A stretch of DNA of 64,000 nucleotides from Bdellovibrionales bacterium (GTDB lineage: Bacteria; Bdellovibrionota; Bdellovibrionia; Bdellovibrionales; UBA1609). The notes under the pieces were generated by a model, which was not told the DNA's origin, searched no databases, and saw only the letters and a list, made by a program, of their open reading frames with translations. Every line of letters begins with the position of its first letter. The first letter of the stretch is position 1. The translations under genes were made by a program, and so were the position numbers. The stretch lies in NCBI GenBank assembly GCA_028819545.1, contig JAPPLG010000016.1, forward strand, positions 5,160 to 69,159, given 5' to 3'. Shown in pieces: positions 7,153 through 59,620 of the stretch.

Positions 7153-7225
7153 TTAAAATAATAAGTCATGCCTTTAAAAATAACTTTAAAGACCATAGTT
7201 TACACAGCTCATACAAAAATCATAA

Positions 7226-7248: not shown

Positions 7249-7259
7249 TGAAAATTCTA

Positions 7260-8441: not shown

Positions 8442-8452
8442 TATAATATATA
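8405..8452. promoter_or_regulatory. Perfect 21-bp-arm palindrome (6-nt spacer) at the 5' end of ATPase gene B
   Basis: TATATATTATATTGTTATTTA-cgctca-TAAATAACAATATAATATATA. It lies upstream of the likely start at 8390. Confidence 0.6.
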
Positions 8453-8477
8453 AATACTAGAATTGTAAAGCTCTTTT

Positions 8478-10079
8478 TTACATGAGGCTGTAGTCAGGGC
8501 CGGAGCCTCCCTCTCTTGGATTCCACCAGGGGCCTAAAACATCTGTAGCTTTGCAGTCCACACAGTTGGGTGCATTCACAATAAATTTTCCATTCTTTCT
8601 TTCATACACTCCAGCCGGACAAAAATTAATATAAAAATCCTGAACAGCTTCCGGAAGATCTTTGGAAACTTCCAAGTGAGAAGGAATATCATCTCTTGTT
8701 TTATTTCCGGAAAGATAAACAGCATCTGCTTTTGAATCAGAAGAAGTTTGATCTTTATTCAACAATCTTTTTTTCTGATGATCCGAAAGAAGTTTCTTCG
8801 GATTTAAATTTCCAGGAAAATAACCACCGCTGAGTATCATCAAACCCGCTTTGATAAATCCTATAATCTTTGCTTCCACCTGCAAAGTTCTTAAAACATT
8901 TCTCACCTTATACAAATCTTTACCAATAACAGATTTCTTCTTAATCACATCTTCAAAAGAAGCTGTTATGTTCCCCTGTTTTTTCTGAACTAAAAACTCA
9001 GCAGATGAAATCCCTGATAACATCGCATAATGAATACCTTTTAAAGAAGGGACGTTTACCAGCCCTGCCGCATCCCCCAATATAAAAACTCCTTCATCAT
9101 AAAGGCGGTCCGGAATACTATAAAAACCTCCTTCGGGAATCACCTTAGCCCCCCACTCCAAGCACTCTCCCCCTTCTAATATTTTTTTAAAAAGAGGATG
9201 CTCTTTCATCTCCTGAAATTTTTTATTTAAATTCCACTTGTTGGATGGATGATCCATCCCCGCCACCAAGCCAATGGAAATATTATTATTGGATAAAGGA
9301 TAGAGAAAGCTTCCTCCAAAACCTTCCAAAGGATACCCCACAGTATGGATGACATTTTTTGGAAGTTCTTTGACTTTCCATATCTCTTTTACCCCTAAAG
9401 CATATTGATCCGGATAATGAGAAGAAATATTTTTCCATTTCAACCAGGCTTGTGAAAGATTTCCCCTTACTCCATCTGCTAAAAAAATATTTTCAGCTAA
9501 AATATTCACAGGCTCCTGATACTGAGAAGTTTTTTCTCCATTTCTATCCAAACCGGAAGGTGTTGTTTGAATACCGATCACCTGACCTTTTTCTACAATC
9601 AGTTTATGAGCCGGAGTGCCCGGAAAAACATCCACACCCAACTCTTCTGCTTTTTTTCCAAGCCAGCGAACAACCTCACATAAAGAGGCTGTAAAGAAAC
9701 CCTTATTTCGCATCGTAGGAGGGGCAGGTATTCTGTATTGATTTTTTTTCGTCAGAAAATACATCTTTTCACTTTTCACAGATTGGCAAAAAGGCCAATC
9801 CTTGGATGTCATCTGAGGAAATAATTTTTTAAAAGCAACAGGATTGATAATAGAGCCGGAAAGGGAATGTCCTCCCAAACGTCCTGCTTTCTCTATCACC
9901 CCAATTTGCAAATCCGGAAGCAGTTGTTTTAAACGTATAGCTCCGGCTAAAGAAGCAGGGCCTGCGCCCACAAACAAAGCAGAAAAATTAAGAACTTCCC
10001 CTGAAGGACGTCCTTCAACAATTCTCTGATCCAAAGAATATTTTAATTGATAATCCTTTGGTATAAAACCTGAACCCAT
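8478..10079 (-). CDS. Electron-transfer flavoprotein:ubiquinone oxidoreductase (ETF-QO)
   Basis: 533 aa with an N-terminal FAD fold VGAGPASLAGAI and a C-terminal 4Fe-4S region FCPAGVYE...NAPNCVDCKATD. Confidence 0.9.
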   Translation of the reverse strand: MGSGFIPKDYQLKYSLDQRIVEGRPSGEVLNFSALFVGAGPASLAGAIRLKQLLPDLQIGVIEKAGRLGGHSLSGSIINPVAFKKLFPQMTSKDWPFCQSVKSEKMYFLTKKNQYRIPAPPTMRNKGFFTASLCEVVRWLGKKAEELGVDVFPGTPAHKLIVEKGQVIGIQTTPSGLDRNGEKTSQYQEPVNILAENIFLADGVRGNLSQAWLKWKNISSHYPDQYALGVKEIWKVKELPKNVIHTVGYPLEGFGGSFLYPLSNNNISIGLVAGMDHPSNKWNLNKKFQEMKEHPLFKKILEGGECLEWGAKVIPEGGFYSIPDRLYDEGVFILGDAAGLVNVPSLKGIHYAMLSGISSAEFLVQKKQGNITASFEDVIKKKSVIGKDLYKVRNVLRTLQVEAKIIGFIKAGLMILSGGYFPGNLNPKKLLSDHQKKRLLNKDQTSSDSKADAVYLSGNKTRDDIPSHLEVSKDLPEAVQDFYINFCPAGVYERKNGKFIVNAPNCVDCKATDVLGPWWNPREGGSGPDYSLM

Positions 10080-13446: not shown

Positions 13447-15895
13447 TTGGTTAAATGAATTTATTTCCCTTTCAGACCTTCAACCGCAGGACTTAGCTCA
13501 ACTGCTGAATGAAAGAGGCTTGGAAGTGGAAGCTTTATCCTCTGAGAAATTAGATCATGTGGTTATCGGTCAGATCACCAAAATTTACCCTCATCCTAAT
13601 GCTGATAAACTTCAAATATGCCATGTAAAAAAAGATAAAGACCAGGCTCCCCTATCTATAGTATGTGGAGCAAAAAATCCAAAAACTGGAGACAAAGTGG
13701 TTCTCTGTTTGGAAGGGGCGGTTCTTCCTGGAAATTTTAAAATTCAGGAAAGAAAAATTCGAGGAGAACTCAGTCAGGGAATACTTGCTTCCAAAAAAGA
13801 ACTTGGAATCTCTTCTGAAGACGACGGGGGTATTTTCATTTTACCCACATCTGCTCCCATTGGAAGCAGACTGGATGAATACTTAAAAACAAATGACACT
13901 ATTTTAGACGTATTTATTCCTCCCAACCGGGTGGATTTAATGAGCCACATTGGACTGGCACGGGAGCTTTCAAGCTTATTGGACAAACCTTTTCGCTTCC
14001 CTTTTGAACCTTATCATCATAAATCAAACACTTCCAACTTAGGAATTCCCAAAGGGCAAATGAAATATTCCAAAAGCCCTAAACTTCCTTTTGTTCCTTA
14101 CAAAAATTCTTTTAATGTCAAAGTATATGAAACTGATATTTGCCCCTATTACAGCGGACAAATGATGAAAGACGTACAAATCGGCCCCTCCCCCTACTGG
14201 CTTAAAAAAAGATTGGAATTGTTGGGTGTCAATTCTGTGAACAACATTGTTGATATCACCACCTGGATTTTACTGGAATGGGGCCAGCCTCTTCATGCCT
14301 TCGACTTGGACACTTTAGAAGGAGGCATCCACGTCAAAAAAGCAAAGTCCAAAGATCAAATGCTGGCTTTAAATGAAGATCAACTGACATTTCGAGGCGA
14401 TGAATTAGTCATTCGCGATGATAAAAAAAATCTGGCTTTAGCAGGTGTCATTGGCGGAAAAAGCAGTGCTATTTCTGATAAAACAAAAAATATTTTTATT
14501 GAATCCGCTGTATTTGCTCCTTATGACGTTCGACGTACTGCCAGGAGACTTGGCTTAAATACAGCATCCTCCTTTCAGTTTTCAAGAGGTGTCTTTCCCC
14601 ACACATCAATGCTGGCTCTACAAAGAGCCTGCTCACTGATCCAACAAGTTGCAGGAGGCTCTTTACAGGGAAGTCCTTACGAAGAAGGATCTTTTTCATT
14701 TGCACAAAAATCCATTACTATCAACCAAGAACAACTCAATGAACGTCTAGGGTATGAAGTTCCTCTGAATGAATTTACCGATTGGATGAAAAAAATGAAC
14801 TCCAAAGTGACAAAAAGATTTAGCAACATAAAAGTCACTCCTCCTTATTACAGAAAAGATGTAAATATTAAAGAAGATCTTATTGAAGAGTGGGCCAGGC
14901 TGAAGGGTTATGATTTTGTGCCGAAAGAGCTTCCGGTCTTTGCTCCTCAAAAATCTTTAAACAATAAGGAATTGAACTTTCTTGAGCGGATCAAACATAC
15001 TGTTAAAGAGCAAGGATATTATCAGGCTATTAATTATAGTTTTGTAGATCATACACTGCATAGTGAATTTTTAGGTGAAAAACCTGTTGCAGATATACCT
15101 CTTGGCCCTCCTATTTTTCTCACTAACCCCATCACTCAGGATTTGAACAGTCTTCGCCAGAGTTTGCTCCCCGGGCTTTTTCAAAATTTACTTTTTAATA
15201 TGCGGCATGGAGAAGATTTCGGACGGCTTTTCGAACAAGGGATCAGTTTTTTTAAAACAGGAAATAGGTTTGAAGAAAAACAGTATTTATCTTTTATGGT
15301 GTGGGGGCAAAAAAAAGACATATGGAATTCCAATCCACGTCCAACTCTTTTTGATTTGAAAAGCTCTATAGACAATTTATTAACATTGATTCAGGCTCCT
15401 GATTGGACTTGGACGGATTTTGAAGGTTCATTTCCATTTTTACATACAAAAAGACGCCTTTTACTAAAAATACAGGGGCAAACAGTGGGTTTTATTGGAG
15501 CTATCAACCCTATGTTGTCAGATCAAAATAAAATTCGAGGTGATATCTCGATGGGGGAGCTAAATCTATCTTTACTCTTGAATATTCCAAAAACAGAGTT
15601 CAAGTTCCAAAAACCTTCCCTCTTACCTTCTGTAAAAAGAGATATCTCCCTTCTCATCCCTAATGAGCAAAATGTAGAAGAAATTTTAAATTTTATGAAA
15701 AGTCATGCTCCTGCAGAATTCCGTCAAATCTCTCTTGTTGATTATTATGAAGGGGTTCAGAAGGGATTTCGATCTGTTTCTTTCCGTTTTATCATTCAAG
15801 GTTCTGATAAAACCCTCTCTGAAAAGCAAATCAGCTCCCTTCAACAGCCTATGGTAAAGGCTCTGTTAAAAAAATATCCTGTTCAGATTCGATAA
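13424..15895 (+). CDS. pheT: Phenylalanine-tRNA ligase beta subunit
   Basis: 823 aa with an N-terminal FNWLNEF and tRNA-binding domain (HPNADKL), plus B3/4, B5 and C-terminal FDX-ACB-like regions. Overlaps the pheS stop. Confidence 0.95.
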   Translation: MKMLYSFNWLNEFISLSDLQPQDLAQLLNERGLEVEALSSEKLDHVVIGQITKIYPHPNADKLQICHVKKDKDQAPLSIVCGAKNPKTGDKVVLCLEGAVLPGNFKIQERKIRGELSQGILASKKELGISSEDDGGIFILPTSAPIGSRLDEYLKTNDTILDVFIPPNRVDLMSHIGLARELSSLLDKPFRFPFEPYHHKSNTSNLGIPKGQMKYSKSPKLPFVPYKNSFNVKVYETDICPYYSGQMMKDVQIGPSPYWLKKRLELLGVNSVNNIVDITTWILLEWGQPLHAFDLDTLEGGIHVKKAKSKDQMLALNEDQLTFRGDELVIRDDKKNLALAGVIGGKSSAISDKTKNIFIESAVFAPYDVRRTARRLGLNTASSFQFSRGVFPHTSMLALQRACSLIQQVAGGSLQGSPYEEGSFSFAQKSITINQEQLNERLGYEVPLNEFTDWMKKMNSKVTKRFSNIKVTPPYYRKDVNIKEDLIEEWARLKGYDFVPKELPVFAPQKSLNNKELNFLERIKHTVKEQGYYQAINYSFVDHTLHSEFLGEKPVADIPLGPPIFLTNPITQDLNSLRQSLLPGLFQNLLFNMRHGEDFGRLFEQGISFFKTGNRFEEKQYLSFMVWGQKKDIWNSNPRPTLFDLKSSIDNLLTLIQAPDWTWTDFEGSFPFLHTKRRLLLKIQGQTVGFIGAINPMLSDQNKIRGDISMGELNLSLLLNIPKTEFKFQKPSLLPSVKRDISLLIPNEQNVEEILNFMKSHAPAEFRQISLVDYYEGVQKGFRSVSFRFIIQGSDKTLSEKQISSLQQPMVKALLKKYPVQIR

Positions 15896-15896
15896 A
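15833..15896 (+). repeat. Native pheT terminus: 64-bp sequence repeated perfectly at 23638-23701
   Basis: AGCTCCCTTCAACAGCCTATGGTAAAGGCTCTGTTAAAAAAATATCCTGTTCAGATTCGATAAA is identical at both positions. A diverged third copy lies at 22007-22053. Confidence 0.95.
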
Positions 15897-15960
15897 CCAC
15901 AAGCCATTCTTGTACGTAAAAGTTATTCTGAACTTGTTTCAGAATCCAGTGCATAGGAAA

Positions 15961-16065
15961 TACTTTGTATAAGCGGCTCAAAGCTCAAACATGCGTTTGC
16001 CACAGAACAACTTTCAGTCGTTCTGTGATCAAATCCGAACTCATTTGAGCCGCTTATACAAAGTA
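15961..16065. repeat. IR-flanked hairpin-core element, copy 1 (core in reverse orientation)
   Basis: 22-bp perfect IRs TACTTTGTATAAGCGGCTCAAA / TTTGAGCCGCTTATACAAAGTA flank a 61-nt core at 15983-16043. Confidence 0.9.
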
Positions 16066-16272
16066 TGTCCCTGCAAAGACAGGAGGCCAGCTTATATGCT
16101 ATGTAAAGGCTTGTTCTGTAAATTCCACCTAATATTACTCTATACATATAAAAGTTCTGTTAAAAACAAAGTAATTGAAAAATTTACACTTTTCTAAACA
16201 TCCTCTGTCAGTTTTATGAAGATTATGGTATAAAAACAAATCCATAACGTTGCTAAAGAGGATGTATTTTAC

Positions 16273-19200
16273 ATGAATACCCTGATTAAAAGTGTGTATT
16301 TAAAAAGCTGTACCCATTTTTTGTTTGTTTTCTTTTTTACACTTCCATCTCAATCTTTAGAGGAAACTTTCAATCTTTCACGCCCCTTCACAGTAACACA
16401 ATCTAGTTATCGACCAAATACTTTAGAAGAAAGCTTATATTACATGGAACTTTATGAGTTTCTTTCTAAAAATAAACATGCATTATCACTTTTAGAGTCT
16501 GCTCGAAAAGGCGGTGTACACTACAATTCTGCTCAATCAGAATTCAACAGATATTTATCAAACCCAGTATCTAATTTGAGAGAAGGTTTTGATTTGATAA
16601 ACAGAAATACTCATTTGAAGGCCAAAGCTCAGATAGGGGCTAAAATTTCAAATGCAGATATTGGATTATCCGCTGAAGTAGATTTAAAACGCCTTGGAAA
16701 TGACATATTAAATAGCTTGAGTAGTAAAGAATACAATCAAAAAGTTACAGACACTGCCCAGTTTTATACAAGAGAGATTTATGCGTGCTTAGAAAATAAT
16801 AATCAATGCTCTATAAATGCTCAAGTTCATCAAATACAAGCCTTGAAAGCCATACGATTCCATTTTCACGATTTTCCACAAGACAAAGATCAAGAAGGAA
16901 ATCGTTTAAACTTTGAAGAAAAATCCCAATATGCTTCTCCAGCACAAATAGAAATGGCAACTACTCTTTTTAATACTCATCAGCTACGAAGTATCTCAAC
17001 ACAAAATGAACAGAACACAGAAGAAATAATAAACGCCGTGAATACAAATACAGAGAGTGCTCAACAAATATCTCAGAAAGAAAAAGAGGAAATAATAACA
17101 GCAATAAATAAACATACAAAAAATATACAAGAGTCAGCTCTTATAGAAATGGAAAGGCTAGAACATCTAAGAAGAGAAAATATGAGACAAAACGATCCAG
17201 ATTATATGAATAGAGACCCAATTGTTCTGGCTACAAATAATAGTATTCAATCATGGGAAAAAGAAAAAGAACAAATCGCATCAGAGCTAGAGCAAGGCTC
17301 CATCACACAGGAAGAATACAGTAAAGAAATAGAAAACATTGATCGTACAATAAAAGAAAAACAGATAGATATTCAAGTTTATGAATTTAAAAAACACATA
17401 CAAAACGGAATAGCATGGGCGAATGCTGTAGAAGCAACTGGAAGAGTATTAGGAGCTCCAGAAGAGATCATCCAATTAAGCCGTGCAGGCTCAGCCAGCA
17501 TGCAAACAATCGGTGCTATAGGATCTATGTTTATAGCAGGATCCATAGACCCCACAGGGCTGACTTTAGCCCTTAATGGTGTTTCAATGCTTATCACAGC
17601 AATTTCAAATAATCCTAACTCAGAACAAATAATGATAGAACTGCTTGATGGCTTAAGAAAAAGACAAATACAAATTCTAAATAAACTTAATGAGATAGAC
17701 TTTAAAGTTGAAGAAATTCAACTCAAAGTGAATCATATTATTGAAATACTCCAAATGAATCATAATCAAATAACAGAAAAATTAGATCGAATTACAGATG
17801 ATCTGCAAAGAATTGAAAGTGAAATGATACTTGCAATAACAGAAGCAAAGTCCACTACAATGAAAGAGTCCCAAAAAAGAGGAGCTTTTTTTACTGATGA
17901 CGGCAGGGTGGTATTGGATGTATTAGAAAATTGGGAAAGACCTCATTTGAATGAAGTTATATCTCAATGTAAACACTATAAAGATCAATACGATAAAACT
18001 GGAAATATTAGATTTTACGACGACTATAATTGGTGTATTGATAAAGCTAGAAACCAACTCTTCATGATACAAGAAAGTTTGTCTGATATGTATCAAAAAT
18101 CCAGACACCGTTTTGGATCAGACACTTATATTGTGGAACAAAGTATTAATAAACTGAGCATTGAACAAGTTATTGATGAATGGAATAAATTAGTAGAAGA
18201 CCGAATTGGGATTTTCTCATCTATACACCCTTGGTTGAATCAACAATATTCAAAATATATGGCAAGCGACAGAAGATTCGGAGGCTTGTGGGCGGAAAGC
18301 CAGCCTCAGTGGGATGAATACAGACAGTTTTTAAACCGCATAAGAGAGGTGAATATTAAACATCCCTTATTTTATGATGAAGTTTTATCAGTATATGCAC
18401 CTTTAACAGAAAAACTTCCACTCCCCAAAAATCTCAGTTTTATCACAGAATCTAACATCACAGACTATAAAGATGCTCACCTGACTGAAATGTGCCAAAA
18501 TCTGAAACATATTGAAGATTTGTCTCAATACAATAGAGACCACCTCCAAAGAGCATGGCTGGTTTACCTTTATCTATCTGATCAATTGAAAAGGCAATTA
18601 AATAATCTAATGGAGAAACATATTGATCAATTAATAGAAAGACACGAAGAGCAAAGTAATAGCTTTGTTAACACTCCCGCCCTAAAAGAGCCAGACTGTA
18701 ACTGCAGTAGTAATTATGCACAAACAGAAGCAAAATTTTTCCAATATATATCCAGCCAAAAACAAACAGATATTTTTAGATACATTCAAAATCAAGGATA
18801 CAATATACATGATTTTATGAATATAAATCCTGAAGAAACTGCTCGAAAAGCCAGCAGGCGCCCTCATATAACCAACCCCTATCTTCTTCAAGAAGGATTT
18901 TTCAAAACTGTTCAAACTGGATGTGGAATGACAAGTAAAGGCCAGAGAAAAGACGTGGCCGATTTAAATCAACCCAAACAAGCAGAATTATTTGAAAAAA
19001 CACTGGAAGAAGTGCGAAGAGGATCACAAGGTGGCTGCTGGTTTATTGATCAATACGGTCTTTTTGGACAAACAGGCCAAAAAATACAATTAAGTCAACA
19101 GACAGGGCCTTATGAGTTTGAAGGTAGAGCTTTGGAAACAATGTGCCCCATTTTCGTTGTGAAGAAAACAGAAGGAACTATGAAAGATGAAGTGCAAAAG

Positions 19201-20349
19201 AGAGCTATCTGTTTAGAAACAAAAATACACAAGCTTGAAACCATATCAACACTGGATAATCTAGTTTTTGAAAATCTGTATGATTGGCCTGAAAGCCTCC
19301 CCATTGGAAAAGATTTAAAATTTATTGAAGAATCCCGTAATAAAATTTTTCATAATGAAAAACAAATTGATATTAATGAGCCTGCAATTTACGTATTCTT
19401 TAGGCAAAAAACTATGAAAGAAAACCCTGTTTATCATACAAAGCACAGCAGTTCTTTTATAAACTATAATTCAGCTAATAACACAACACCCAAAGAAGGA
19501 GGCCTTTTTACACTAAGTCATTATAAAATAGCTTATGGCTATTCCCGACAGCAAAGTGAAATAGTAGATTCTCCGCACTATAGAACTCCTGATTCTCCAG
19601 AGTACATTGGTAATATGACTTTGCAGAATCGAAATGGCAATACCATTTCATTTGGAAAATATAATGGTATTATTGAAGATAATACATATCAACAGGTGGA
19701 AACAGCTACTCAAAATAATTACCCAATCAGAATAGACACTCAATGGATTCGAGGAAATTTCGATAAACAAAATTATTGGACCATTAAAGATAATCTAGAT
19801 TATGAAAATACGGACAGCCATGGAATATGCCTTAAAAAAGCTTGTTTGGAGTATGAAGAAATAAAAGAGGCAGATAGAGAAGCCTGGATTCAAACAGCCG
19901 CTCAACACATAAGACAACTACAAGGTTTTTTAAACACTGATATTAAGAGATGGATCAACAAAGCCAATCTTGAAAATGATGACAATACTCCAAAACTGCA
20001 TATGTTGCTGCCAAAAAGTGCACTGGTTTTAGATACAATGGCTAGAGCTGGATACGGACAGTCTTTAGAAACACAGCCCGATTTATTAAATATAGTTGAA
20101 GAAATAAAATCATTAAAAGAAAAAATAAACACTCAAAATACAGAACAAATATTAAAAATTATTCAAAGTTTAAGAGATTTAAACGCTAATCAAGGTATTC
20201 CCTCTCTGCCTATTCAACCGATAGTACAAGAGGTGCCTGTCGGACTGGGAGACACCAAAAGCCGACATCAGGCCTTAAATATTATATTGAACAGAAATTA
20301 TCTCAGCCCAAGAGAATGTCGCTATTTAAAAAGAAGAGAACAACAATGA
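16273..20349 (+). CDS. Giant secreted coiled-coil protein of unknown function
   Basis: 1358 aa with an N-terminal signal-like segment and long charged heptad-like regions. A ~45-aa Gly/Ala-rich hydrophobic segment is encoded around 17479-17612. Confidence 0.75.
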   Translation: MNTLIKSVYLKSCTHFLFVFFFTLPSQSLEETFNLSRPFTVTQSSYRPNTLEESLYYMELYEFLSKNKHALSLLESARKGGVHYNSAQSEFNRYLSNPVSNLREGFDLINRNTHLKAKAQIGAKISNADIGLSAEVDLKRLGNDILNSLSSKEYNQKVTDTAQFYTREIYACLENNNQCSINAQVHQIQALKAIRFHFHDFPQDKDQEGNRLNFEEKSQYASPAQIEMATTLFNTHQLRSISTQNEQNTEEIINAVNTNTESAQQISQKEKEEIITAINKHTKNIQESALIEMERLEHLRRENMRQNDPDYMNRDPIVLATNNSIQSWEKEKEQIASELEQGSITQEEYSKEIENIDRTIKEKQIDIQVYEFKKHIQNGIAWANAVEATGRVLGAPEEIIQLSRAGSASMQTIGAIGSMFIAGSIDPTGLTLALNGVSMLITAISNNPNSEQIMIELLDGLRKRQIQILNKLNEIDFKVEEIQLKVNHIIEILQMNHNQITEKLDRITDDLQRIESEMILAITEAKSTTMKESQKRGAFFTDDGRVVLDVLENWERPHLNEVISQCKHYKDQYDKTGNIRFYDDYNWCIDKARNQLFMIQESLSDMYQKSRHRFGSDTYIVEQSINKLSIEQVIDEWNKLVEDRIGIFSSIHPWLNQQYSKYMASDRRFGGLWAESQPQWDEYRQFLNRIREVNIKHPLFYDEVLSVYAPLTEKLPLPKNLSFITESNITDYKDAHLTEMCQNLKHIEDLSQYNRDHLQRAWLVYLYLSDQLKRQLNNLMEKHIDQLIERHEEQSNSFVNTPALKEPDCNCSSNYAQTEAKFFQYISSQKQTDIFRYIQNQGYNIHDFMNINPEETARKASRRPHITNPYLLQEGFFKTVQTGCGMTSKGQRKDVADLNQPKQAELFEKTLEEVRRGSQGGCWFIDQYGLFGQTGQKIQLSQQTGPYEFEGRALETMCPIFVVKKTEGTMKDEVQKRAICLETKIHKLETISTLDNLVFENLYDWPESLPIGKDLKFIEESRNKIFHNEKQIDINEPAIYVFFRQKTMKENPVYHTKHSSSFINYNSANNTTPKEGGLFTLSHYKIAYGYSRQQSEIVDSPHYRTPDSPEYIGNMTLQNRNGNTISFGKYNGIIEDNTYQQVETATQNNYPIRIDTQWIRGNFDKQNYWTIKDNLDYENTDSHGICLKKACLEYEEIKEADREAWIQTAAQHIRQLQGFLNTDIKRWINKANLENDDNTPKLHMLLPKSALVLDTMARAGYGQSLETQPDLLNIVEEIKSLKEKINTQNTEQILKIIQSLRDLNANQGIPSLPIQPIVQEVPVGLGDTKSRHQALNIILNRNYLSPRECRYLKRREQQ

Positions 20350-21980
20350 AAATTTTAATTTACTTCATAATCACTTTAGGTCTTATAAACTGCAGTCAAG
20401 GGCTTGCTACCGATGAACCTTCGAAAACTCCCGCTCTTTCCGAACAACTTGAAGAAACCACAGAAGAGCCAATAAACTCACTTAAAACACAAGTGTTTAC
20501 TTTTGACCAAATCAAAGCTATGACTCCCTCTGAAATAACAATCCGAATAGGCAAAGATAAATCTATTCCTCATTTTAAAGATTTTGAAAACTGGCCATTA
20601 TACGAGTTAAACACACAACAGTTGGGAAGACTATTTTATCAAATTATTCTACACGGATATCTTGGTAATGTCACACCTGAACAAATTCACTCTATAAGAC
20701 CAGAATCAATAAACAGAATAGACTATATTATAAGATGCCTCTCCCCTGAGCAAACAAAAGCTATGACTCCAAAACAAATTTCGAGAGTTTGGACATTTGA
20801 TTTTACTCCAGAACAAGTTGCACAGCTTAATGCCAGTCAAATAAACTCTTTATCCAGCAATGATCTCACTGCTGAAAAAGTACATGTCATCTCTCCTGAA
20901 ACTATCACAGAAATAGGTCACTATAGCATACCTTTTGATCGATTAACACGCGCTCAAGTGGAAGCCGTCACCCCTGAACAAATCTCTTATGTAGATGAAT
21001 ATGGACTTCCTGGGGATGGAATTTCAAAGTTTACAGTCGAACAAATCCCATGGCTGACTCCTGAACAAATTTCAGCTCATCCTATCGAAGTCATTCAATT
21101 TCTAAAACCAGAACAATTAGCGGCCATGTCTCACGAACAATTACAAGCTATCTCTATAGAAAAATCTTACGAGTTCAAAGACCGCCACTTGAGAGCTTTA
21201 TCCTTTAGCCAGCTTTTACTATTTGAGGAAAATCATAAGATCGATACAATTATAGGCTTTTCAGCTAACGGAAGACAGTTTTTCCAACAAACAAACCCTA
21301 AAGATTATCCACAGTATGAATACTATATGCAGTTTATTTTTCCAAATGACTTTAAACATGTCTCTTATACACAGGCTTTAAGTTTTTCTCACAATTTACT
21401 GGCAGTGTTAAGCCCTGAGAGAATCAAGTGGATGCCTTATTATGCCAAAGTACTAACCCCTCAGTTGATTCAAAAAGATGCTACTGAGCCAGATAAGTGG
21501 TTGATCACAAAAGAGCAGTTTCAAGCTATTCCTGTAGAGCAGATACCAGATTTGAGTTTAGAATTTCTTGAAGCCATGACTAATGAGCAAGTTTATTGGT
21601 TTACTTTTGAGCAGCTCGCTCACCTGAATAGAGATCAATTAAAAAGACTTTTTACTTCTGGATTTAGTGAACGCCCGCCTATGCACGTCCCAAAAGTATT
21701 TAGCATTATACATATTGCTGAACAAACAGAAGAGGGAGATGAGTGGCTAAGAGGCCCTATGAAGGAAGTGATTATGGAACATATGGAAATAGAATGTGCA
21801 CAATTTTATGGTTGCAGAGAGAGATGGATGAAATTTCCTGATCTTCCACAAAGCATGAAAGATAGTTACTTTTCCCCTCCTCCTCAGCCTGAAGAACCTA
21901 TCTTAACTTATTTGCCACATCTAATCGACTGTCAGCAACTTAGCAATCTTATAACCAATAGTAAAAATAGATCAAAATGA
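20346..21980 (+). CDS. Lipoprotein with degenerate ~10-aa TPEQI-type repeats
   Basis: Probable start is MKILIYFIITLGLINC (lipobox) at 20346, overlapping the upstream stop as ATGA. Many copies of [LF]TPEQ[IV]xx[LIM]. Confidence 0.7.
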   Translation: MKILIYFIITLGLINCSQGLATDEPSKTPALSEQLEETTEEPINSLKTQVFTFDQIKAMTPSEITIRIGKDKSIPHFKDFENWPLYELNTQQLGRLFYQIILHGYLGNVTPEQIHSIRPESINRIDYIIRCLSPEQTKAMTPKQISRVWTFDFTPEQVAQLNASQINSLSSNDLTAEKVHVISPETITEIGHYSIPFDRLTRAQVEAVTPEQISYVDEYGLPGDGISKFTVEQIPWLTPEQISAHPIEVIQFLKPEQLAAMSHEQLQAISIEKSYEFKDRHLRALSFSQLLLFEENHKIDTIIGFSANGRQFFQQTNPKDYPQYEYYMQFIFPNDFKHVSYTQALSFSHNLLAVLSPERIKWMPYYAKVLTPQLIQKDATEPDKWLITKEQFQAIPVEQIPDLSLEFLEAMTNEQVYWFTFEQLAHLNRDQLKRLFTSGFSERPPMHVPKVFSIIHIAEQTEEGDEWLRGPMKEVIMEHMEIECAQFYGCRERWMKFPDLPQSMKDSYFSPPPQPEEPILTYLPHLIDCQQLSNLITNSKNRSK

Positions 21981-22006
21981 AAATTTTAATTTACTTCATA
22001 ATTGAT

Positions 22007-22117
22007 GCTGGTGAAAGCTCTGTTAAACAAATATCCTGTTCAGATTCGATAAACCACAAGCCATTCTTGTACGTAAAGGTTATTCTGAACTTGTTTCAGA
22101 ATCCAGTGCATAGGAAA
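22007..22117 (+). repeat. Diverged internal copy of the pheT terminus plus downstream left-end module
   Basis: 22007-22053 aligns to 15850-15896 with several substitutions. 22054 onward is near-identical to 15897 onward. Confidence 0.85.
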
Positions 22118-22224
22118 TACTTTGTATAAGCGGCTCAAATGAGTTCGGATTTGATCACAGAACGACTGAAAGTTGTTCTGTGGGCAAAACGCATTTTTGA
22201 GCTTTGAGCCGCTTATACAAAGTA
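22118..22224. repeat. IR-flanked hairpin-core element, copy 2 (core in forward orientation, inverted relative to copy 1)
   Basis: Same 22-bp IRs as copy 1. The core at 22140-22202 equals the reverse complement of 15983-16043, differing only by two 1-nt indels and one substitution (61 vs 63 nt). Confidence 0.9.
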
Positions 22225-22403
22225 TTTCCCTGCTTCAACACTTCCTTCGGTTGACACTTCATCACTTCGCTCCGAACTTGATCCGGAATCCAGTCGTACT
22301 TGCAGACATTCGATCAGCAGTTTCGGTTGACACCTACACTGCCTCGCCCCCTGCAAAAGCAGGGGTCCAGCTTACATGTAAAGGCTTACTCCATAGACTC
22401 CAC

Positions 22404-22429
22404 TTAACATTACTCATGAGTAATGTTAA
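22404..22429. promoter_or_regulatory. Perfect 13+13 bp palindrome upstream of ATPase gene C
   Basis: TTAACATTACTCA|TGAGTAATGTTAA, 42 nt upstream of ATG 22471. TTGACA at 22436-22441 follows. Confidence 0.55.
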
Positions 22430-22470
22430 CTATACTTGACATTACTCATATCTCATATTACTCTCTTTTC

Positions 22471-23610
22471 ATGGTTGAAAAGCGTTATTTATTTTCCCAC
22501 ATTCAAAAAGATTTAAAATCCAAAATGGTTTTTATCGGCGGAGCCAGACAAGTCGGTAAAACCACCTTGGCCCTTAAATATTTAAAACCTTCTGACCCCA
22601 AACATCCAGCTTATCTTAATTGGGATATTTCTTCTCATCAGGAGAATATTATCAAAAATCAAATTCCACTGAAATTTAAAACAATCGTTTTTGATGAAAT
22701 ACATAAATACGTAAAATGGAGAAATTTTATGAAGGGCCTCTATGATGAACACCATAGAACTCATTCTTTTTTAGTGACAGGGTCTGCCCGCTTGGATTTT
22801 TTTTCAAAAGGAGGTGACTCCCTTTTGGGAAGATACCACTATTACCGCTTGCATCCGTTTTCCTTATTCGAAATCAATAAAAATCCAACTCGAAAAGATT
22901 TAGAGCAACTGCTCACATTCGGAGGGTTTCCAGAGCCTTTTTCAAAACAATCCAAAACATTTTCAAAAAGATGGTTTCGAGAAAGAAGAAAAAGGGTGAT
23001 CCAAGAAGATATTAGAGATTTGCAAAAAATTAAAGAAATTTCCTATATCGATCTTCTGATAGAAGCTCTTCCAAGCCGAGTTGCTTCTCCTTTATCAATT
23101 CGCTCTATAAAAGAAGATCTACAGGTCAGCCACCAATCTATCGAAAACTGGATACAAATATTGGAAAACCTTTACATGATCTTCAGAATACCCCCTTACG
23201 GCTCCCCTCAAATCCGAGCTGTAAAAAAAGAACAAAAACTGTACTTTTTTGATTGGTCGCACATCTTGGATGAAAATATTAAATTTGAAAACTTAGTAGC
23301 CAGTCACCTGCTCAAATACTGCCATTACCACGAAGATATTAATGGAGATGATATGGAATTGAGGTTTTTAAGAGATACAGACAAACGAGAAGTAGATTTT
23401 GTGGTTTTAAAAAACAAAAAACCACTATTTGCCGTCGAATGCAAAGCAGGAGAAAGAGCTCTATCCCCCCATCTCAAGTATTTTAAAGAAAGAACCCCTA
23501 TTCCTTTATGGTTTCAAGTGCATAGAGGAAAAAAAGACTATGGAGACGAAAAAACAACAGGAAGAGTTTTACCATTCACCACATTTTCTAAAGATCACCT
23601 CAAGTTATAA
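22471..23610 (+). CDS. COG1373-type AAA ATPase with a C-terminal PD-(D/E)xK-like (DUF4143-type) module
   Basis: Walker A GGARQVGKTTL, Walker B VFDEIHK, and C-terminal REVDFVV...AVECKAGE. The start MVEKRYL at 22471 is preferred over the ORF-track start at 22423, which lies inside the palindrome. Confidence 0.85.
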   Translation: MVEKRYLFSHIQKDLKSKMVFIGGARQVGKTTLALKYLKPSDPKHPAYLNWDISSHQENIIKNQIPLKFKTIVFDEIHKYVKWRNFMKGLYDEHHRTHSFLVTGSARLDFFSKGGDSLLGRYHYYRLHPFSLFEINKNPTRKDLEQLLTFGGFPEPFSKQSKTFSKRWFRERRKRVIQEDIRDLQKIKEISYIDLLIEALPSRVASPLSIRSIKEDLQVSHQSIENWIQILENLYMIFRIPPYGSPQIRAVKKEQKLYFFDWSHILDENIKFENLVASHLLKYCHYHEDINGDDMELRFLRDTDKREVDFVVLKNKKPLFAVECKAGERALSPHLKYFKERTPIPLWFQVHRGKKDYGDEKTTGRVLPFTTFSKDHLKL

Positions 23611-23637
23611 CACATACCAAGCTCCAATAGAGCCAAA

Positions 23638-23701
23638 AGCTCCCTTCAACAGCCTATGGTAAAGGCTCTGTTAAAAAAATATCCTGTTCAGATTCGATAA
23701 A
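23638..23701 (+). repeat. Perfect 64-bp copy of the pheT 3' end, right boundary of the composite insertion
   Basis: Identical to 15833-15896. It is followed by unrelated sequence leading into the ihfA-like gene. Confidence 0.95.
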
Positions 23702-42218: not shown

Positions 42219-42854
42219 ACGTTAATTGTTGGGGATATTCACGGGTGTTTTGATGAACTGATGATGTTATTGGAGAAGGCGGACTACAACCCATCAAAAC
42301 ATGAGTTGATTTTCATTGGGGATCTTATCAATAAGGGGCCTTATTCTTTTAAAACCTTAAAATTTGCTTATGAGAATAAAATTCAATGTGTCATAGGAAA
42401 TCATGAATTAAAGTTTATCCACTTTATTGAAAAAGGTTTAGAGCTTCCTCCAAAGTTAAATCAGTTAAAATTGGAGATGGGTTCAGATTTGAAAAAATGG
42501 CTGGAGTACATGAAAAGCTGGCCGACTTTTATTGAAAAAGAAGATTTTCTAGTCGTACACGCAGGTTTGGTGCCGGAGAAGCATCCCAGCCAATCCCATA
42601 TCGTGCAGTTGGTGAACATTCGTCACTGGGAGAACGGAAAGATGTGTTCCCAAAATACAGGACGCCCTTGGCATGATTATTATAAAGCAGAAAAGTTAGT
42701 TATTTATGGACACTGGGCAAGACAGGGAGTTTTGAAAAAAAATAATTCCTTATGTTTGGATTCAGGCTGTGTGTATGGGAGACAGCTCACAGGTGTTTTT
42801 TTCCCAAGTCAAACTCTGGTTCAAGTTCCTTCACTTCAACCCAAAGTGTTTTAG
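42207..42854 (+). CDS. Metallophosphoesterase, ApaH/PrpE-type phosphatase
   Basis: 215 aa with GDIHGCFDEL, GDLINKGP and GNHE motifs. TTG start. Confidence 0.8.
   Translation: MKDHTLIVGDIHGCFDELMMLLEKADYNPSKHELIFIGDLINKGPYSFKTLKFAYENKIQCVIGNHELKFIHFIEKGLELPPKLNQLKLEMGSDLKKWLEYMKSWPTFIEKEDFLVVHAGLVPEKHPSQSHIVQLVNIRHWENGKMCSQNTGRPWHDYYKAEKLVIYGHWARQGVLKKNNSLCLDSGCVYGRQLTGVFFPSQTLVQVPSLQPKVF
42791..42853 (+). repeat. Native 3' end of the phosphatase gene, repeated at 44101-44164
   Basis: 51 nt are perfectly identical (CCCAAGTCAAACTCTGGTTCAAGTTCCTTCACTTCAACCCAAAGTGTTTTA), plus ~12 nt of imperfect match on the left. Confidence 0.92.
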
Positions 42855-44100
42855 TTGATTTTTAAATCAGTTTGTCTTTTTCCAAACATTTAAGAAAATT
42901 TTTAAGAGTATAAATTTCTAAAAATTCAGTCTTTAAATTTCTATCTCCTAAATAAATCCCTAAAGCTCTATCTATAATGTTTTCTTTCTTAACTTTTATG
43001 AGATGCTTTCCAAATTCCCTTTTCCAATGGGTTGAAGATTTCAATTCAATTCCTATTTTTTTTCCTCTTATTTCTATTATAAAGTCTATTTCTGAATTGT
43101 GATGCGTTTTCCAAAAACTAATCTTAGCCCCCCAATCTTTTATTTGATTCCAAGCTTTTAATTCGTGGAGAAGATAGGTTTCCAAAAGAAACCCCTTTTC
43201 TGGAGCCTGTAAAGGAACCCTTAACTGCCCCGATAAAGTTCGAACAACCCCTGTATCAAAAAAGAAAAATTTAGGTTGAATAACAGTTTTAACACGAGCT
43301 TTAGATTTCCATACAGGAAGCCATGAACCAATTAAAGTGTCCTCCAAGGCTTGAAAATATCCTTTTACAGTTGTCCTGGAAACACCTGAGTCCCTTCCTA
43401 AAGAGGCCATGTTAATAATTTGAGCATTACAAACAGAAGATATATCCAAAAAATTTGAAAAAGCACTAATATTTTTCACAACAGCTTCCTGCTGAATTTC
43501 TTCTCTAAGATACATTAACGAATACGCTTCTAAAAATTCTATTTTTTGTTTAACTGTTTTCAAATTCAAACATTCAGGCAAAGTTCCAAATCGAAGAATA
43601 TCTTCCCATTGATCACTCTGATGTTCTGAGTACACCAAAGGATAGAAAAACTTGTGACTCGCCCTTCCTCCAAGCAAGTTGGAAGAGGATCTTTTCAGTT
43701 TTCTAGCACTGGAGCCCGACAAGACAAATTGTTTTTTATTATTTCTTTCAGATAGAAAATGATGAACATCATCTAAAAGAAGCGGCAACTTTTGCACTTC
43801 ATCAATAACGATAATAGAGTTTTTAGGAAGAGCTAATACTTCATGCCGAAACAGCTCTGGATTTTTTTGAAACTTAAGATAGGTTGAAGGGTGAAGAAGA
43901 TCATAGAAAACAGCTTTTTTATAATGACTTTTAAGCCAAGTGGTTTTTCCTGTTCCTCTAGGCCCTAAAATAAAGAAAGATCTGTTAGAAGTATGAAAAT
44001 GCCTTTTATACATGAGGCGAGCTTAACATGAAAACAAAAATTTGTAAAGTCTGTTGTCATATTTCCCTTAAAAATAACAATCTACATTACATTTTTTTCA
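42854..44100 (-). mobile_element. Single-gene ATPase cassette D inserted at the stop codon of the phosphatase gene
   Basis: Bounded by 42791-42853 and 44101-44164. The only cargo is a COG1373-type ATPase gene, here convergent with the target gene. Confidence 0.6.
42862..44013 (-). CDS. COG1373-type AAA ATPase with a C-terminal PD-(D/E)xK-like (DUF4143-type) module
   Basis: Walker A GPRGTGKTTWL, Walker B VIDEVQK, LSGSSARKLKRSSSNLLGGRA, and C-terminal SEIDFII...GIELKSS. Confidence 0.85.
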   Translation of the reverse strand: MYKRHFHTSNRSFFILGPRGTGKTTWLKSHYKKAVFYDLLHPSTYLKFQKNPELFRHEVLALPKNSIIVIDEVQKLPLLLDDVHHFLSERNNKKQFVLSGSSARKLKRSSSNLLGGRASHKFFYPLVYSEHQSDQWEDILRFGTLPECLNLKTVKQKIEFLEAYSLMYLREEIQQEAVVKNISAFSNFLDISSVCNAQIINMASLGRDSGVSRTTVKGYFQALEDTLIGSWLPVWKSKARVKTVIQPKFFFFDTGVVRTLSGQLRVPLQAPEKGFLLETYLLHELKAWNQIKDWGAKISFWKTHHNSEIDFIIEIRGKKIGIELKSSTHWKREFGKHLIKVKKENIIDRALGIYLGDRNLKTEFLEIYTLKNFLKCLEKDKLI

Positions 44101-44164
44101 AGGATGTTTTTCTCCCAAGTCAAACTCTGGTTCAAGTTCCTTCACTTCAACCCAAAGTGTTTTA
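44101..44164 (+). repeat. Duplicate of the phosphatase gene 3' end (right boundary of cassette D)
   Basis: See 42791-42853. The stop is TAA here and TAG in the native copy. Confidence 0.92.
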
Positions 44165-46932: not shown

Positions 46933-47162
46933 TAGGACTGGATTCCGGCCGGATGCATGACTGATTCCTGTGTTCATGGTTAATAACTGTGCTTTTGGAT
47001 TTTTTGCAAGCATTCGCTCACACTTTGCATAGGCTCTCTTCACTCAGAAAATCGTCCAGATTTTCTGCCTTGTGCTGAATACTTTCGTATTCAACACAAG
47101 TCGTTCGTTCAATTCGAATCCTGCCCCGATAAAAAAGAGAGGATCTATGATCCTCATCCTTT

Positions 47163-47645
47163 TATTTTTACAATTTTTTGTCTGTGCCTCAAGCGAGTTC
47201 GGATTTGATCACAGAGCGGCTAAAAGCCCACTCTGTGGCAAAACGCATGTTTGAGCTTTGAACCACTTATACCAGTCCTTCCTTGTCATAACGTACAATA
47301 AACGAAAACCCTATAACGAAGAAAAGTTCAAACTTTTGCTTCTTTGTATTTTTATAATTTTTTGTCTGTGCCTCAAGCGAGTTCGGATTTGATCACAGAG
47401 TGGCTAACAGCCAGCTCTGTGGCAAAACGCATGTTTGAGCCTTGAATCACTTATACCAGTCCTTCCTTGTCATAACGTACAATAAACGAAAACCCTATAA
47501 CGAAGAAAAGTTCAAACTTTTGCTTCTTTGTATTTTTATAATTTTTTGTCTGTGCCTCAAGCGAGTTCGGATTTGATCACAGAGTGGCTAAAAGCCCACT
47601 CTGTGGCAAAACGCATATTTGAGCCTTGAGGCACTGACAAAAAAT
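47163..47645 (+). repeat. 184-bp tandem repeat (about 2.6 units), each unit containing the conserved hairpin core
   Basis: TGTGCCTCAAGCGAGTTCGG starts at 47183, 47367 and 47551, a period of 184. The last unit closes with the IR GAGCCTTGAGGCACTGACAAAAAAT and abuts the tRNA-Gln 3' end. Confidence 0.92.
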
Positions 47646-47717
47646 ATGGGGTGGCAGGATTCGAACCTGCGCATGACAGAATCAAAATCTGTTGGCTTAC
47701 CACTTGCCGACACCCCA
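47646..47717 (-). tRNA. tRNA-Gln (anticodon UUG), CCA not encoded
   Basis: Reverse complement: TGGGGTGTCGGCAAGTGGTAAGCCAACAGATTTTGATTCTGTCATGCGCAGGTTCGAATCCTGCCACCCCA. It folds as a cloverleaf, with anticodon loop TTTTGAT and T-loop TTCGAAT. Confidence 0.9.
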
Positions 47718-57513: not shown

Positions 57514-59352
57514 TTATAAGGGCCACTGTGGATATTTGGCTTTATCGCCAAGCTCCTCTTCAATACGAAGAAGGCGGTTGTACTTAGCTGTTCTTTCTCC
57601 CCGACTCACTCCACCTGTTTTAATCTGGTGGCACTCAAAAGCTATAGATAAATCAGCAATCACAGAATCCTCAGTCTCACCGCTTCGATGAGAAAGTACC
57701 GTTCGATAACCCGATTGATGTGCAAGCTTCACCGCTTGATAAGCTTCTGTCACTGTTCCAATTTGATTAACTTTTACTAAAAGTGCATTTGCAGTTTTAT
57801 TCTCAATTCCCTTCTTCAACCTCTTAGAATTAGTCACAAATAAATCATCCCCAACAATCTGTACTTTCCCCCCTTGAAGCCTGCTCCACTTCTTCCAATC
57901 CTCCCACTCTTCTTCTTCCAAACCATCTTCAATACTCACCAAAGGATAATTTCTTAACCACTTGTCATAGATTTGAATTAAGTCATCCGCTTTAATCTTT
58001 TTCCCTTCCCATATATACAATCCATTTTGATAAATAGAACTGGCCGCAACATCCAAAGCCAAAGAAATTTCTTTGCCAGGTTTATAGCCTGCATTTTTAA
58101 TAGCTGAAACTAAAAGCTCCAAAGCCTCTTCATTGGATTTCAAAGAAGGAGCTACACCCCCTTCATCCCCAACGGAGGTGCTGTAATTTTTATTTTGCAA
58201 ATCTTTTTTTAACGTATGAAAAACCTCAGAGCTTGCTCTTAAAGCTTCGCGAAAAGAAGAAAAACCATGAGGCACCAGCATAAACTCCTGCACATCCAAA
58301 TTATTATTGGCATGGGAGCCTCCATTCAAAACATTAGTCAGTGGGATAGGAAGTTGATTTACCCCTTTTTTAAAAAAAGAATAAATATTTTTCTTTTGAA
58401 TTTGTGCCAAAAGTTTTAAACAAGCTAAAGAAACACCTAAAATAGCATTAGCACCTAGGCGGCTTTTATTTTCTGTTCCATCCAGATCAATCAATCTTTC
58501 ATCTATATCTTCTATGGATTCCAGATAAACACCACGAATTTTTTTAGAAATCTCAGACACATTCTCACAAGCTTTTAATAAACCTTTCCCGTGAAATCTT
58601 TTTTTGTCCTGATCCCGTAATTCCAAAGCTTCAAAGCGCCCTGTAGAAGCTCCTGATGGAACCATTGCCGAAGCAGAATGCCCGCTTGAACTCCAAACCT
58701 CTACTTCTAAAGCCGGAAAACCCCGACTATCCAAAAGCTCCCTTCCATGAATCTTTGTAATCCTTGGAGAATTTAAAACTAAACTTTTCATATCATTATT
58801 ACTCTCATTAAAAAAAGACATTTGACCGTAAGGAGTGTATTTAATGGAGATTTTATTATCTTTCCACTCCACCTCTGTCATCTCTTCCGATTTATAAGTA
58901 GGAAGCACTTCCAGCATAGAGCGTAGATACTCCACAATATAAGGATAATCTTCTGAAGAAAGCTCACACTCACAGGTAATTGAATTATATTTATATTGAA
59001 CATTATCAATATGCAGAGGGGATACAAACCACTGCAAAATATCTGATAACTTTTGATAGATATTAAAAACAGGTCCAAGTTTTAAAACATGATCCAACTC
59101 ACCCCAGGCCCCAAGCTCTAAAGCCGCATGACCTACAGCAGTTGTCAGTTCCTTATCTACAAAGTGACGGCCAAACTCGTCTGACAACTCCTCAAGAAAA
59201 TTTTCAACTAACTCTGCCTCCATCCAAACACTAGGGTCTTTAATGAAGTGCATTTCCATATTGCTTAATTCATAAAAGCGAGAAGTATCAAAATATCTTT
59301 GATCCAAAAATCGAAAAAAAGAATTTGTCACTCGTCCACTAACTTTCAACAT
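57514..59352 (-). CDS. eno: Enolase with a ~187-aa N-terminal extra domain
   Basis: Residues ~198-612 are a canonical enolase (ITKIHGRELLDSRGFPALEVEV, SHRSGETEDS). The in-frame N-terminal 187 aa have no stop, and a GAAGGT Shine-Dalgarno precedes ATG 59352. Confidence 0.9.
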   Translation of the reverse strand: MLKVSGRVTNSFFRFLDQRYFDTSRFYELSNMEMHFIKDPSVWMEAELVENFLEELSDEFGRHFVDKELTTAVGHAALELGAWGELDHVLKLGPVFNIYQKLSDILQWFVSPLHIDNVQYKYNSITCECELSSEDYPYIVEYLRSMLEVLPTYKSEEMTEVEWKDNKISIKYTPYGQMSFFNESNNDMKSLVLNSPRITKIHGRELLDSRGFPALEVEVWSSSGHSASAMVPSGASTGRFEALELRDQDKKRFHGKGLLKACENVSEISKKIRGVYLESIEDIDERLIDLDGTENKSRLGANAILGVSLACLKLLAQIQKKNIYSFFKKGVNQLPIPLTNVLNGGSHANNNLDVQEFMLVPHGFSSFREALRASSEVFHTLKKDLQNKNYSTSVGDEGGVAPSLKSNEEALELLVSAIKNAGYKPGKEISLALDVAASSIYQNGLYIWEGKKIKADDLIQIYDKWLRNYPLVSIEDGLEEEEWEDWKKWSRLQGGKVQIVGDDLFVTNSKRLKKGIENKTANALLVKVNQIGTVTEAYQAVKLAHQSGYRTVLSHRSGETEDSVIADLSIAFECHQIKTGGVSRGERTAKYNRLLRIEEELGDKAKYPQWPL

Positions 59353-59407: not shown

Positions 59408-59477
59408 GAAATGATTTATATAAGCTACTCAAAGCTCAGACACACAACTCGTTTGAGCCGCTTATATAAATCATTTC
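59408..59477. repeat. Miniature member of the IR-element family (26-bp IRs, 18-nt core)
   Basis: GAAATGATTTATATAAGCTACTCAAA-gctcagacacacaactcg-TTTGAGCCGCTTATATAAATCATTTC. The IR inner part is shared with the 15961 and 22118 elements. Confidence 0.8.
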
Positions 59478-59564: not shown

Positions 59565-59620
59565 TGAGCAAAAAGCTCAGACACACAACTTACTTGATCC
59601 CCCACTTATATAAACCATTC
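59565..59620. repeat. Second, degenerate miniature family member
   Basis: Contains the same mini-core GCTCAGACACACAACT and a right arm CACTTATATAAACCATT. Confidence 0.55.

Follow-up and report, generated by a model that had tools for sequence, protein, structure and literature searches.

What is the 184-bp tandem array that adjoins a tRNA-Gln gene in an uncultured Bdellovibrionales bacterium, and does the conserved hairpin inside it have a function of its own? The array lies in a stretch of 64,000 nucleotides (assembly GCA_028819545.1, contig JAPPLG010000016.1, positions 5,160 to 69,159 of the forward strand), called the window here, and each of its units holds one copy of an element with a core of ~60 nt. 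For this core the original prediction proposed a structured small RNA, a recognition hairpin for a Y1/REP-type or other recombinase, or a replication or termination signal. The category that fits best was absent from those candidates: the element is probably a small, non-coding, palindromic, dispersed and non-autonomous repeat of an uncultured Bdellovibrionales clade, that is, a miniature inverted-repeat transposable element (MITE) of the Correia type, and most likely not a dedicated RNA gene. As expected of MITEs in general, it is shorter than ~500 bp and non-coding, is bounded by terminal inverted repeats and is found at non-homologous loci with presence/absence differences. Its occurrence at unrelated intergenic loci, its presence or absence at a given site, its two length classes and its partial copies are all directly observed.

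The left arm of the core, GAGTTCGGATTTGATCACAGA (21 nt), occurs five times in the window (at 47195, 47379, 47563 and 22141 on the plus strand and at 16021-16042 on the minus strand), against none expected from shuffled sequences. Full elements measure ~105 to 122 bp and the mini form 70 bp, with no open reading frame (ORF) inside, and the terminal repeats of 21 to 30 nt are 93 to 100% complementary in window copies A1, A2 and B3, in the copies of relatives L035 and L046 and in the mini forms (Table 1). Within the 64 kb there are full copies at three loci, one mini form and one partial mini form, all in intergenic gaps. The complete copies are each predicted to fold into a single hairpin of 105 to 122 nt (−53 to −70 kcal/mol as RNA, z −9 to −13.6), and the G+C content of the element is 40 to 44%, compared with 32% in intergenic DNA and 35.8% for the window overall.

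Tandem Repeats Finder (TRF) reported the array with a period of 184 bp (2.6 copies, 95% matches, score 879), and self-BLAST aligned 47163-47445 with 47347-47629 at 96%; the unit starts first proposed from the sequence (47183, 47367 and 47551) agree with this period. The element lies in the 3' trailer of tRNA-Gln, antisense to the tRNA, and in the window it separates the tRNA from a bidirectional intrinsic terminator. The right arm of copies B1 and B2, TTTGAACCACTTATACC, resembles the A-type arm of the copies near pheT and does not close the long hairpin; B1 folds weakly (−29 kcal/mol) because its arms are mismatched. The third unit had been described as closed by its own inverted repeat at the tRNA 3' end, and this is borne out: in copy B3 an inverted repeat of 21 nt (ATTTTTTGTCTGTGCCTCAAG / CTTGAGGCACTGACAAAAAAT, 47541-47561 / 47625-47645, 95% complementary) encloses the core, the last base of the copy, 47645, adjoins the tRNA, and the predicted RNA fold reaches −52.9 kcal/mol (z −9.0). 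The array probably arose locally, with two neighboring copies at tRNA-Gln giving ~99 nt of homology, after which units would have been added by unequal recombination or replication slippage. The window represents a gap-filled version of the contig. In the European Nucleotide Archive version (ERZ23495468, scaffold_906, 71,176 bp) a scaffold gap of 100 N stands at window positions 47503-47536, for which the array accounts; the 34 nt present there in the window are identical to the preceding unit, and the contig in its NCBI form is shorter by 66 bp. Both versions run without a break from unit 1 into unit 2, whereas the join between units 2 and 3 and the copy number of the array are uncertain because they depend on gap filling.

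Two further full copies, A1 and A2, follow the 3' end of pheT (assigned by Pfam) and a duplicate of that end, A1 starting 60 nt past the pheT stop codon. That the core of the array recurs between inverted repeats at these two places was correctly foreseen in the original prediction, although the repeats, given there as 22 bp, measured 27 nt (GGAAATACTTTGTATAAGCGGCTCAAA, 96 to 100% complementary, 100% in A2). Both copies sit in a directly repeated module, inside which the centre of 61 to 63 nt is exactly inverted while the flanks keep their orientation; the direct repeat resumes past the right inverted repeat. The original prediction mentioned neither this inversion nor the non-cognate right arms of B1 and B2 nor the scaffold gap. 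We suggest that recombination between the two perfect 27-bp repeats turns the core around, which would explain its opposite orientations in the two pheT modules. In the mini form, A-family inverted repeats enclose a centre of 18 nt, CGAGTTGTGTGTCTGAGC, and the A, C and mini types have a terminal GGAAATAC...CTCAAA in common.

Syntenic loci of relatives, each given an L number, were retrieved through the flanking HtrA-like protease and pheT. In L035 (protease 89% identical) a single copy with the same left arm occupies exactly the same position at tRNA-Gln; in L044 (protease 88%) the neighbors are the same, the T-run of the terminator directly abuts tRNA-Gln and there is no element, which makes this a precise empty site. 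The tRNA-Gln site also stands without the element in two relatives with different neighbors, L036 (protease 86%) and L041/L043 (89%). The L046 locus (protease 85%) carries a copy with a third (C) type of terminal repeat, GTGAAATACTGTGAGCAAAAGGGTTCAAAT, and its position, across the terminator and 35 nt from the tRNA, marks it as a separate insertion. At the 3' end of pheT, L039 is empty, with an HU gene directly after pheT, L037 has a DUF4143 cassette and no element, and L045 retains a truncated, decayed copy. A 70-bp mini form with the identical 18-nt centre was found at an unrelated locus of L044. The mini form thus occurs at unrelated loci in two genomes, from which it follows that the repeat ends propagate and not the core hairpin. 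L035 shows a second local duplication as well: ~300 nt away lie another half of the core, right repeat and end of the tRNA, with a GGATTCG microhomology at the joint and one breakpoint at the base of the core stem. Among the relatives, short-read contigs break off in or just after tRNA-Gln (L034, L042) or, inside a repeat, 77 nt past pheT (L038), consistent with repeats breaking the assemblies at these places.

A covariance model (R1) built from seven copies and run over ~270 kb of clade DNA returned only the seven full and two mini copies. Searching genome and metagenome contigs for the exact 20-mer GAGTTCGGATTTGATCACAG gave only one chance match and, in 31 contigs, the start of an unrelated high-GC gene; an exact string of this length is too strict for the family, as both the L035 and the L046 copy deviate from it. 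Degenerate core patterns in viral contigs gave chance matches only and no covariance-model match, and a BLAST search of the element against plasmids and phages returned nothing.

The original prediction had itself named simple segmental duplication among the findings that would together refute it. In that view the copies would be nothing other than segmental and tandem duplicates of one ancestral hairpin, neither mobile nor functional. The array and the two pheT modules are indeed local duplications, and the tRNA-Gln copies of the window and L035 are orthologous; however, the pheT-type, tRNA-type, L046 and mini copies differ in their flanks and in the type of their inverted repeats, two insertion points near tRNA-Gln are seen among the genomes, and relatives have precise empty sites. 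Simple segmental duplication fails to explain this combination of different flanks, filled and empty sites and different inverted repeats, and we regard it as extremely unlikely to be the whole account.

Table 1. Element copies and neighboring features. Coordinates are window positions unless a relative locus is named.
Feature	Coordinates	Strand	Evidence or detail
Direct-repeat module: last 44 nt of pheT, 59-nt spacer, left inverted repeat	15852..15982	+	copy at 22009-22139, 97%
Element copy A1, core on minus strand (15983-16043)	15956..16070	-	covariance model 111.6 bits, minus strand
Element copy A2, core (22140-22202) inverted relative to A1	22113..22229	+	covariance model 115.2 bits, plus strand
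Intrinsic terminator, bidirectional	47139..47155	both	terminator scan, both strands
Tandem array, one element copy per unit	47159..47629	+	TRF; self-BLAST
Element copy B1 (unit 1): B-type left repeat, core, non-cognate right arm	47173..47280	+	covariance model 104 bits
Element copy B2 (unit 2), built like B1	47357..47464	+	covariance model 103.9 bits
Element copy B3 (unit 3), complete	47541..47645	+	covariance model 123.9 bits
tRNA-Gln (UUG, ttg), CCA not encoded	47646..47717	-	ARAGORN; Rfam tRNA 63.4 bits
Mini form: A-family 26-nt inverted repeat and 18-nt centre, without core hairpin	59408..59477	-	covariance model 36.6 bits
Partial mini copy: centre and degenerate arm	59572..59615	-	sequence comparison
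Conserved ~150-nt segment	46997-47173; L035 11612-11801; L044 11508-11702	+ (window)	comparison
Other repeat families	22234-22350; L045 ~3880-3946; L037 12490-12710; L035 11950-12060; L046 10480-10700		

The hairpin was first singled out for its covariation, the inner stem being reported to change on both arms at once with pairing kept, and this was taken to indicate selection on a DNA or RNA hairpin. The change itself is confirmed and extended by the relatives, with four variants of the apical stem: ACGACT/AGTTGT in the pheT copies, GTGGCT/AGCCCAC in the tRNA copies, GCGACC/GGTTGA in L035 and GCGGCT/AGTCTGC in L046. When covariation was quantified in the alignment of the seven copies, 93% of the alignment cells were paired and 15 of the 41 pairs had changed on both sides; shuffled alignments gave 6.7 ± 1.7 such pairs (0 of 500 reached 15) and slid controls 1 to 3. 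Most of the compensated pairs (12 of the 15) fall in the outer terminal repeat, the apical stem contributing two and the central stem one, and the proposed pairing between the conserved loops (GAGTTCGG with TTTGAGC) shows 0 compensatory changes and is broken in L035 and L046. Pairing is thus maintained, but the step from covariation to selection on a hairpin is invalid for an element with terminal inverted repeats, because joint change in the arms of such repeats has three other causes: the arms may be two copies of one protein-binding site, they may differ jointly by descent from different master elements, and quasi-palindromes are corrected arm against arm. We infer that the compensatory changes reflect twin terminal repeats and different masters and not selection on an RNA gene. 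A more general caution follows for palindromic repeats, in which strong compensatory change is to be expected from the twin arms and is not, taken alone, evidence for an RNA gene.

Several results weigh against a Correia-type MITE. No transposase, integrase or invertase was found in the window ORFs scanned by Pfam (50 of the 75 ORFs of at least 80 aa), and the ~270 kb of clade DNA held no full-length parent element with matching ends and no further match to the repeat arms. No consistent target-site duplication was found at any copy; at ~6 pairs of junctions, some of them old, the flanks amount at best to TA/TA for the B type and are mismatched for the A, C and mini types. The internal loops GAGTTCGGNTTTG and GCAAAACGCATNTTTGA are near-invariant across types A, B and C, whose terminal repeats are ~50 to 60% alike, and this is the opposite of the usual transposase-bound MITE. 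Eight pair columns contain G·U pairs on the core-sense strand, compared with a single column of C·A, and this strand gives the better RNA fold by 5 to 14 kcal/mol; with DNA energy parameters both strands fold near-equally. The G·U excess and the sense-strand fold hint at a strand-specific constraint. In addition, the sample of full elements represents only ~4 independent lineages.

The observations on loops and strands are those on which a functional structured RNA would draw, either a small RNA or a cis element read on the core-sense strand, with loops that bind a protein or make tertiary contacts and with dispersed copies that are paralogous genes or regulatory modules. Such an RNA would account for loops that barely change while the stems vary and remain paired, for G·U pairs confined almost solely to the strand that also folds better, and for a raised G+C content and strongly negative fold z-scores. 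However, the conserved-loop pairing lacks compensatory change, as described above, and close relatives do without the element at the same sites. Orientation is a further difficulty: the core is antisense to the sole expected transcripts at tRNA-Gln and A1 and sense at A2, where the flanks are like those of A1, which disfavors a strand-specific cis-acting role. Nor do the elements have signals of their own, as scans for promoter-like sites and intrinsic terminators found none inside them, the sole terminator detected being that at 47139-47155. The Rfam search proposed at the outset gave no match at gathering or E-value thresholds other than tRNA (Rfam 15), and the best sub-threshold match was a generic microRNA-precursor hairpin (34.7 bits, with 62.6 needed). 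With no promoter or terminator, no Rfam family and both orientations in the same context, the stand-alone small RNA of the original prediction finds no backing, and a functional RNA in either form seems unlikely to us. For a replication or termination signal, also among the first candidates, we found no evidence; a G+C-rich hairpin followed by a T-run does not occur in the elements. A likeness to group II intron domain V (GAGCCGCTTATAC) was considered separately and rejected, as the pairing partner of this segment is the distant left arm and not a neighboring sequence.

We also considered that the conserved core might be, in itself, a strand-specific folded module recognized by a recombinase or an RNA-binding protein of the clade, which we judge doubtful. 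Its parts would then be two invariant unpaired tracts and a stem with a free tip, carried by exchangeable outer stems, and the element would belong to a new mobile or regulatory system based on hairpin recognition rather than to the plain MITEs, with a possible link to the insertion of gene cassettes at gene 3' ends.

Another hypothesis is that the element serves as a single-stranded DNA hairpin, the substrate of a strand-specific enzyme such as a Y1/HUH transposase, an IS110-type recombinase or a system of attC-like recombination, which would recognize the loop nucleotides and the central stem and leave to the outer repeat the extrusion of the hairpin. The lack of a clear target-site duplication, the insertions right beside the terminator or other hairpins, the conserved unpaired sequences around a stem with a freely varying tip, and the G·T/G·U excess on one strand all suit such a substrate. 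A Y1_Tnp gene (IS200/RAYT-like, 142 aa) is in fact encoded by relative L040 (990-1418), but the hairpin on either side of it (CCCCCGTGCAAGCACGGGG, 962-984 and 1465-1487; compare CCCCGTGCAAGCACGGGG) is GC-rich and unrelated to the core, of which no copy lies within 22 kb. This was the sole Y1 gene that we found, and neither a Y1_Tnp domain nor an IS110 or integron integrase domain was detected in the window ORFs scanned. The testable features of repetitive extragenic palindromic (REP) sequences are likewise absent, the attC consensus ends RYYYAAC/GTTRRRY are unmatched (GCTCAAA/TTTGAGC here), the mini form spreads without the central hairpin, and the DNA-parameter folds are near-equal on the two strands. 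The REP/Y1-type role of the original prediction is not upheld by these results, and a single-strand substrate of any kind appears improbable.

Finally, the hairpin could be a recombination site through which cassettes insert at gene 3' ends, or an invertible switch of a neighboring gene. Its positions invite the idea: both pheT copies lie directly after duplicated pheT 3' ends and head blocks of inserted genes, a B copy adjoins the 3' end of the tRNA, the core has opposite orientations in the two pheT modules, and the duplication in L035 has a breakpoint at the foot of the core stem. However, L037 carries the same DUF4143 cassette at the pheT 3' end without the element, and the cassettes flanked by direct repeats at 7215-8500, 42794-44164 and 2568-5018 have no copy of it. 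With no invertase or integrase in the scanned ORFs and no promoter-like site in the invertible part, this role is very unlikely. A narrower version, with the hairpin as part of the site where islands attach at the pheT and tRNA 3' ends, was rejected on the same grounds, L037 and the other cassettes being devoid of the element.

The cassette insertions are a subject in their own right. Three genes for AAA_14/DUF4143 ATPases (7260-8441, 22423-23610 and 42862-44013) each lie between direct repeats of 34 to 60 nt, in regions spanning 7215-8500, 22009-23701 and 42794-44164, and in two cases (pheT and a metallophosphatase gene) the repeats duplicate the 3' end of the neighboring gene including its stop codon. 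Another gene has its 3' end in triplicate (2568-2626, 3894-3952 and 4976-5018). The last 64 nt of pheT recur with 100% identity at 23638-23701, 7.8 kb away, and bracket a set of inserted genes (15833-23701). In relatives the cassette sites are empty (L039, L036) or hold other genes (L035, L040, L046), and no integrase was found in the window ORFs scanned. Insertion of this kind has no explained mechanism and may be of more interest than the hairpin. Two of the DUF4143 genes have a perfect or near-perfect palindrome at the 5' end (8403-8454 and 22404-22449), one with 23-nt arms (TTTATATATTATATTGTTATTTA) and the other, TAACATTACTCATGAGTAATGTTA, kept in L037; they are possible operators. A gene for a 554-aa protein with ALTTAQ repeats has its first 27 nt (ATGAAAATTTTAATTTACTTCATAAT, 20345-20371) repeated with 100% identity at its 3' end (21976-22002), a scar of rearrangement in which the repeat continues into the middle one of the pheT 3'-end copies. 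The literature on Bdellovibrio repeats and on DUF4143 yielded nothing useful to us.

If the element is a Correia-type MITE, its copies would be mobilized in trans, now or formerly, by an enzyme whose gene lies elsewhere in the genome. Wherever a copy is transcribed it should fold into a very long, near-perfect RNA hairpin, and the settings for this are the tRNA-Gln 3' trailer, the region downstream of pheT and the leader of a DUF4143 gene. Such a hairpin would likely be cut by RNase III or slow the polymerase, as a by-product rather than a designed function. A well-delimited family of mobile repeats would thereby be added to a Bdellovibrionales clade known from metagenomes only, for which we found none described in the literature searched, and model R1 can be used to mask the family or to take its census. 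The greater conservation of the loops than of the terminal repeats, together with the G·U excess on one strand, poses small but real puzzles.

Other features share the neighborhood of the element. Between the DUF805 gene and tRNA-Gln a segment of ~150 nt is conserved in three species. It holds a hairpin with compensatory changes (GTGCTGAATAC/GTATTCAACAC versus GTATTGAATGC/GCATTCAATAC), a stretch similar to the T-arm and acceptor of a tRNA (ATTCGAATCCTGCC) and the bidirectional terminator, has no Rfam match, and may be a small RNA gene convergent with tRNA-Gln. The same intergenic regions are crowded with further families of small repeats, in a mosaic reminiscent of bacterial interspersed mosaic elements (BIMEs): a 116-nt insert with a TTCGGTTGACAC doublet is common to the window and L045, the hairpins GGATTCCGG...CCGGAATCC and GATCCTGAC...GTCAGGATC are repeated in tandem in L037, and in L046 a 44-nt tandem accompanies a CCCCGCTTTCGCGGGGG hairpin family. 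Farther along, the enolase ORF (57514-59352, minus strand) encodes 612 aa with the enolase domains starting at residue 198. In the relative L034 (96% identical) the gene is called at the same length, and an N-terminal extension of ~190 aa is possible.

Among known systems, the attC sites of integrons (57 to 141 nt) are similar in being folded, imperfect palindromes beside gene cassettes in which structure counts for more than sequence and the terminal structure varies. They differ in their RYYYAAC/GTTRRRY ends, in their association with an integron integrase, which the scanned window ORFs lack, and in that the internal sequences are conserved here; moreover, cassette boundaries in the window are direct repeats of gene 3' ends and not element hairpins. 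The element is like REP sequences with RAYT transposases in its hairpin-centred organization, in the lack of a clear target duplication and in a hint of strand asymmetry. At 105 to 122 nt, however, the present element exceeds the 20 to 40 nt of REP units, has long perfect outer repeats and lacks the 5' GTAG-type tetranucleotide, and no RAYT gene is flanked by its copies, the Y1 gene of L040 having a different hairpin. ERIC, RUP and BOX elements and BIME mosaics are closer, as imperfect palindromes of 100 to 130 bp that are intergenic, often co-transcribed and modular. The modularity here is BIME-like, the core being combined with A, B, C or hybrid arms and the A-family arms with a long or a short centre, and the element likewise clusters with other repeat families. 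It has no sequence similarity to any of these, and the REP units of BIMEs are much shorter and tied to RAYT, a link not seen here.

The closest likeness is to the Correia repeat enclosed elements (CREE, or nemis) of Neisseria. In CREE an inverted repeat of 26 bp surrounds a conserved, directional core, lengths fall into classes of 153 to 157, 104 to 108 and 69 to 73 bp, and solo repeats with partial core, tandem-duplication variants and variable repeat ends occur; no protein is encoded, and the mobilizing enzyme has not been determined (PMC2649163). Core inversion and RNase III cutting at transcribed repeats have also been described (PMC10969869). The two families are not related in sequence, as the Correia repeat and core ends (CCGGTACGG / TCAGGACAA) are absent from the copies here, which were read directly, and the host belongs to another phylum. 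The target duplication of CREE is not evident, no outward promoter-like or integration host factor (IHF)-like site was detected (the core was inspected by eye for an IHF site of the kind present in Correia elements, and the idea was rejected, the consensus WATCAANNNNTTR being unmatched), and the loops here are more conserved than the terminal repeats. By this comparison the element is an analogue of CREE and not a member. It resembles CREE in its inverted repeat of ~26 to 27 bp enclosing a directional, conserved core, in length classes produced by internal deletion (here ~105 to 122 and ~70 bp), in its partial copies, inverted core, tandem-duplication variants and variable repeat ends, and in being an intergenic element that encodes no protein, differs in its insertions between strains and would form a long hairpin when transcribed.

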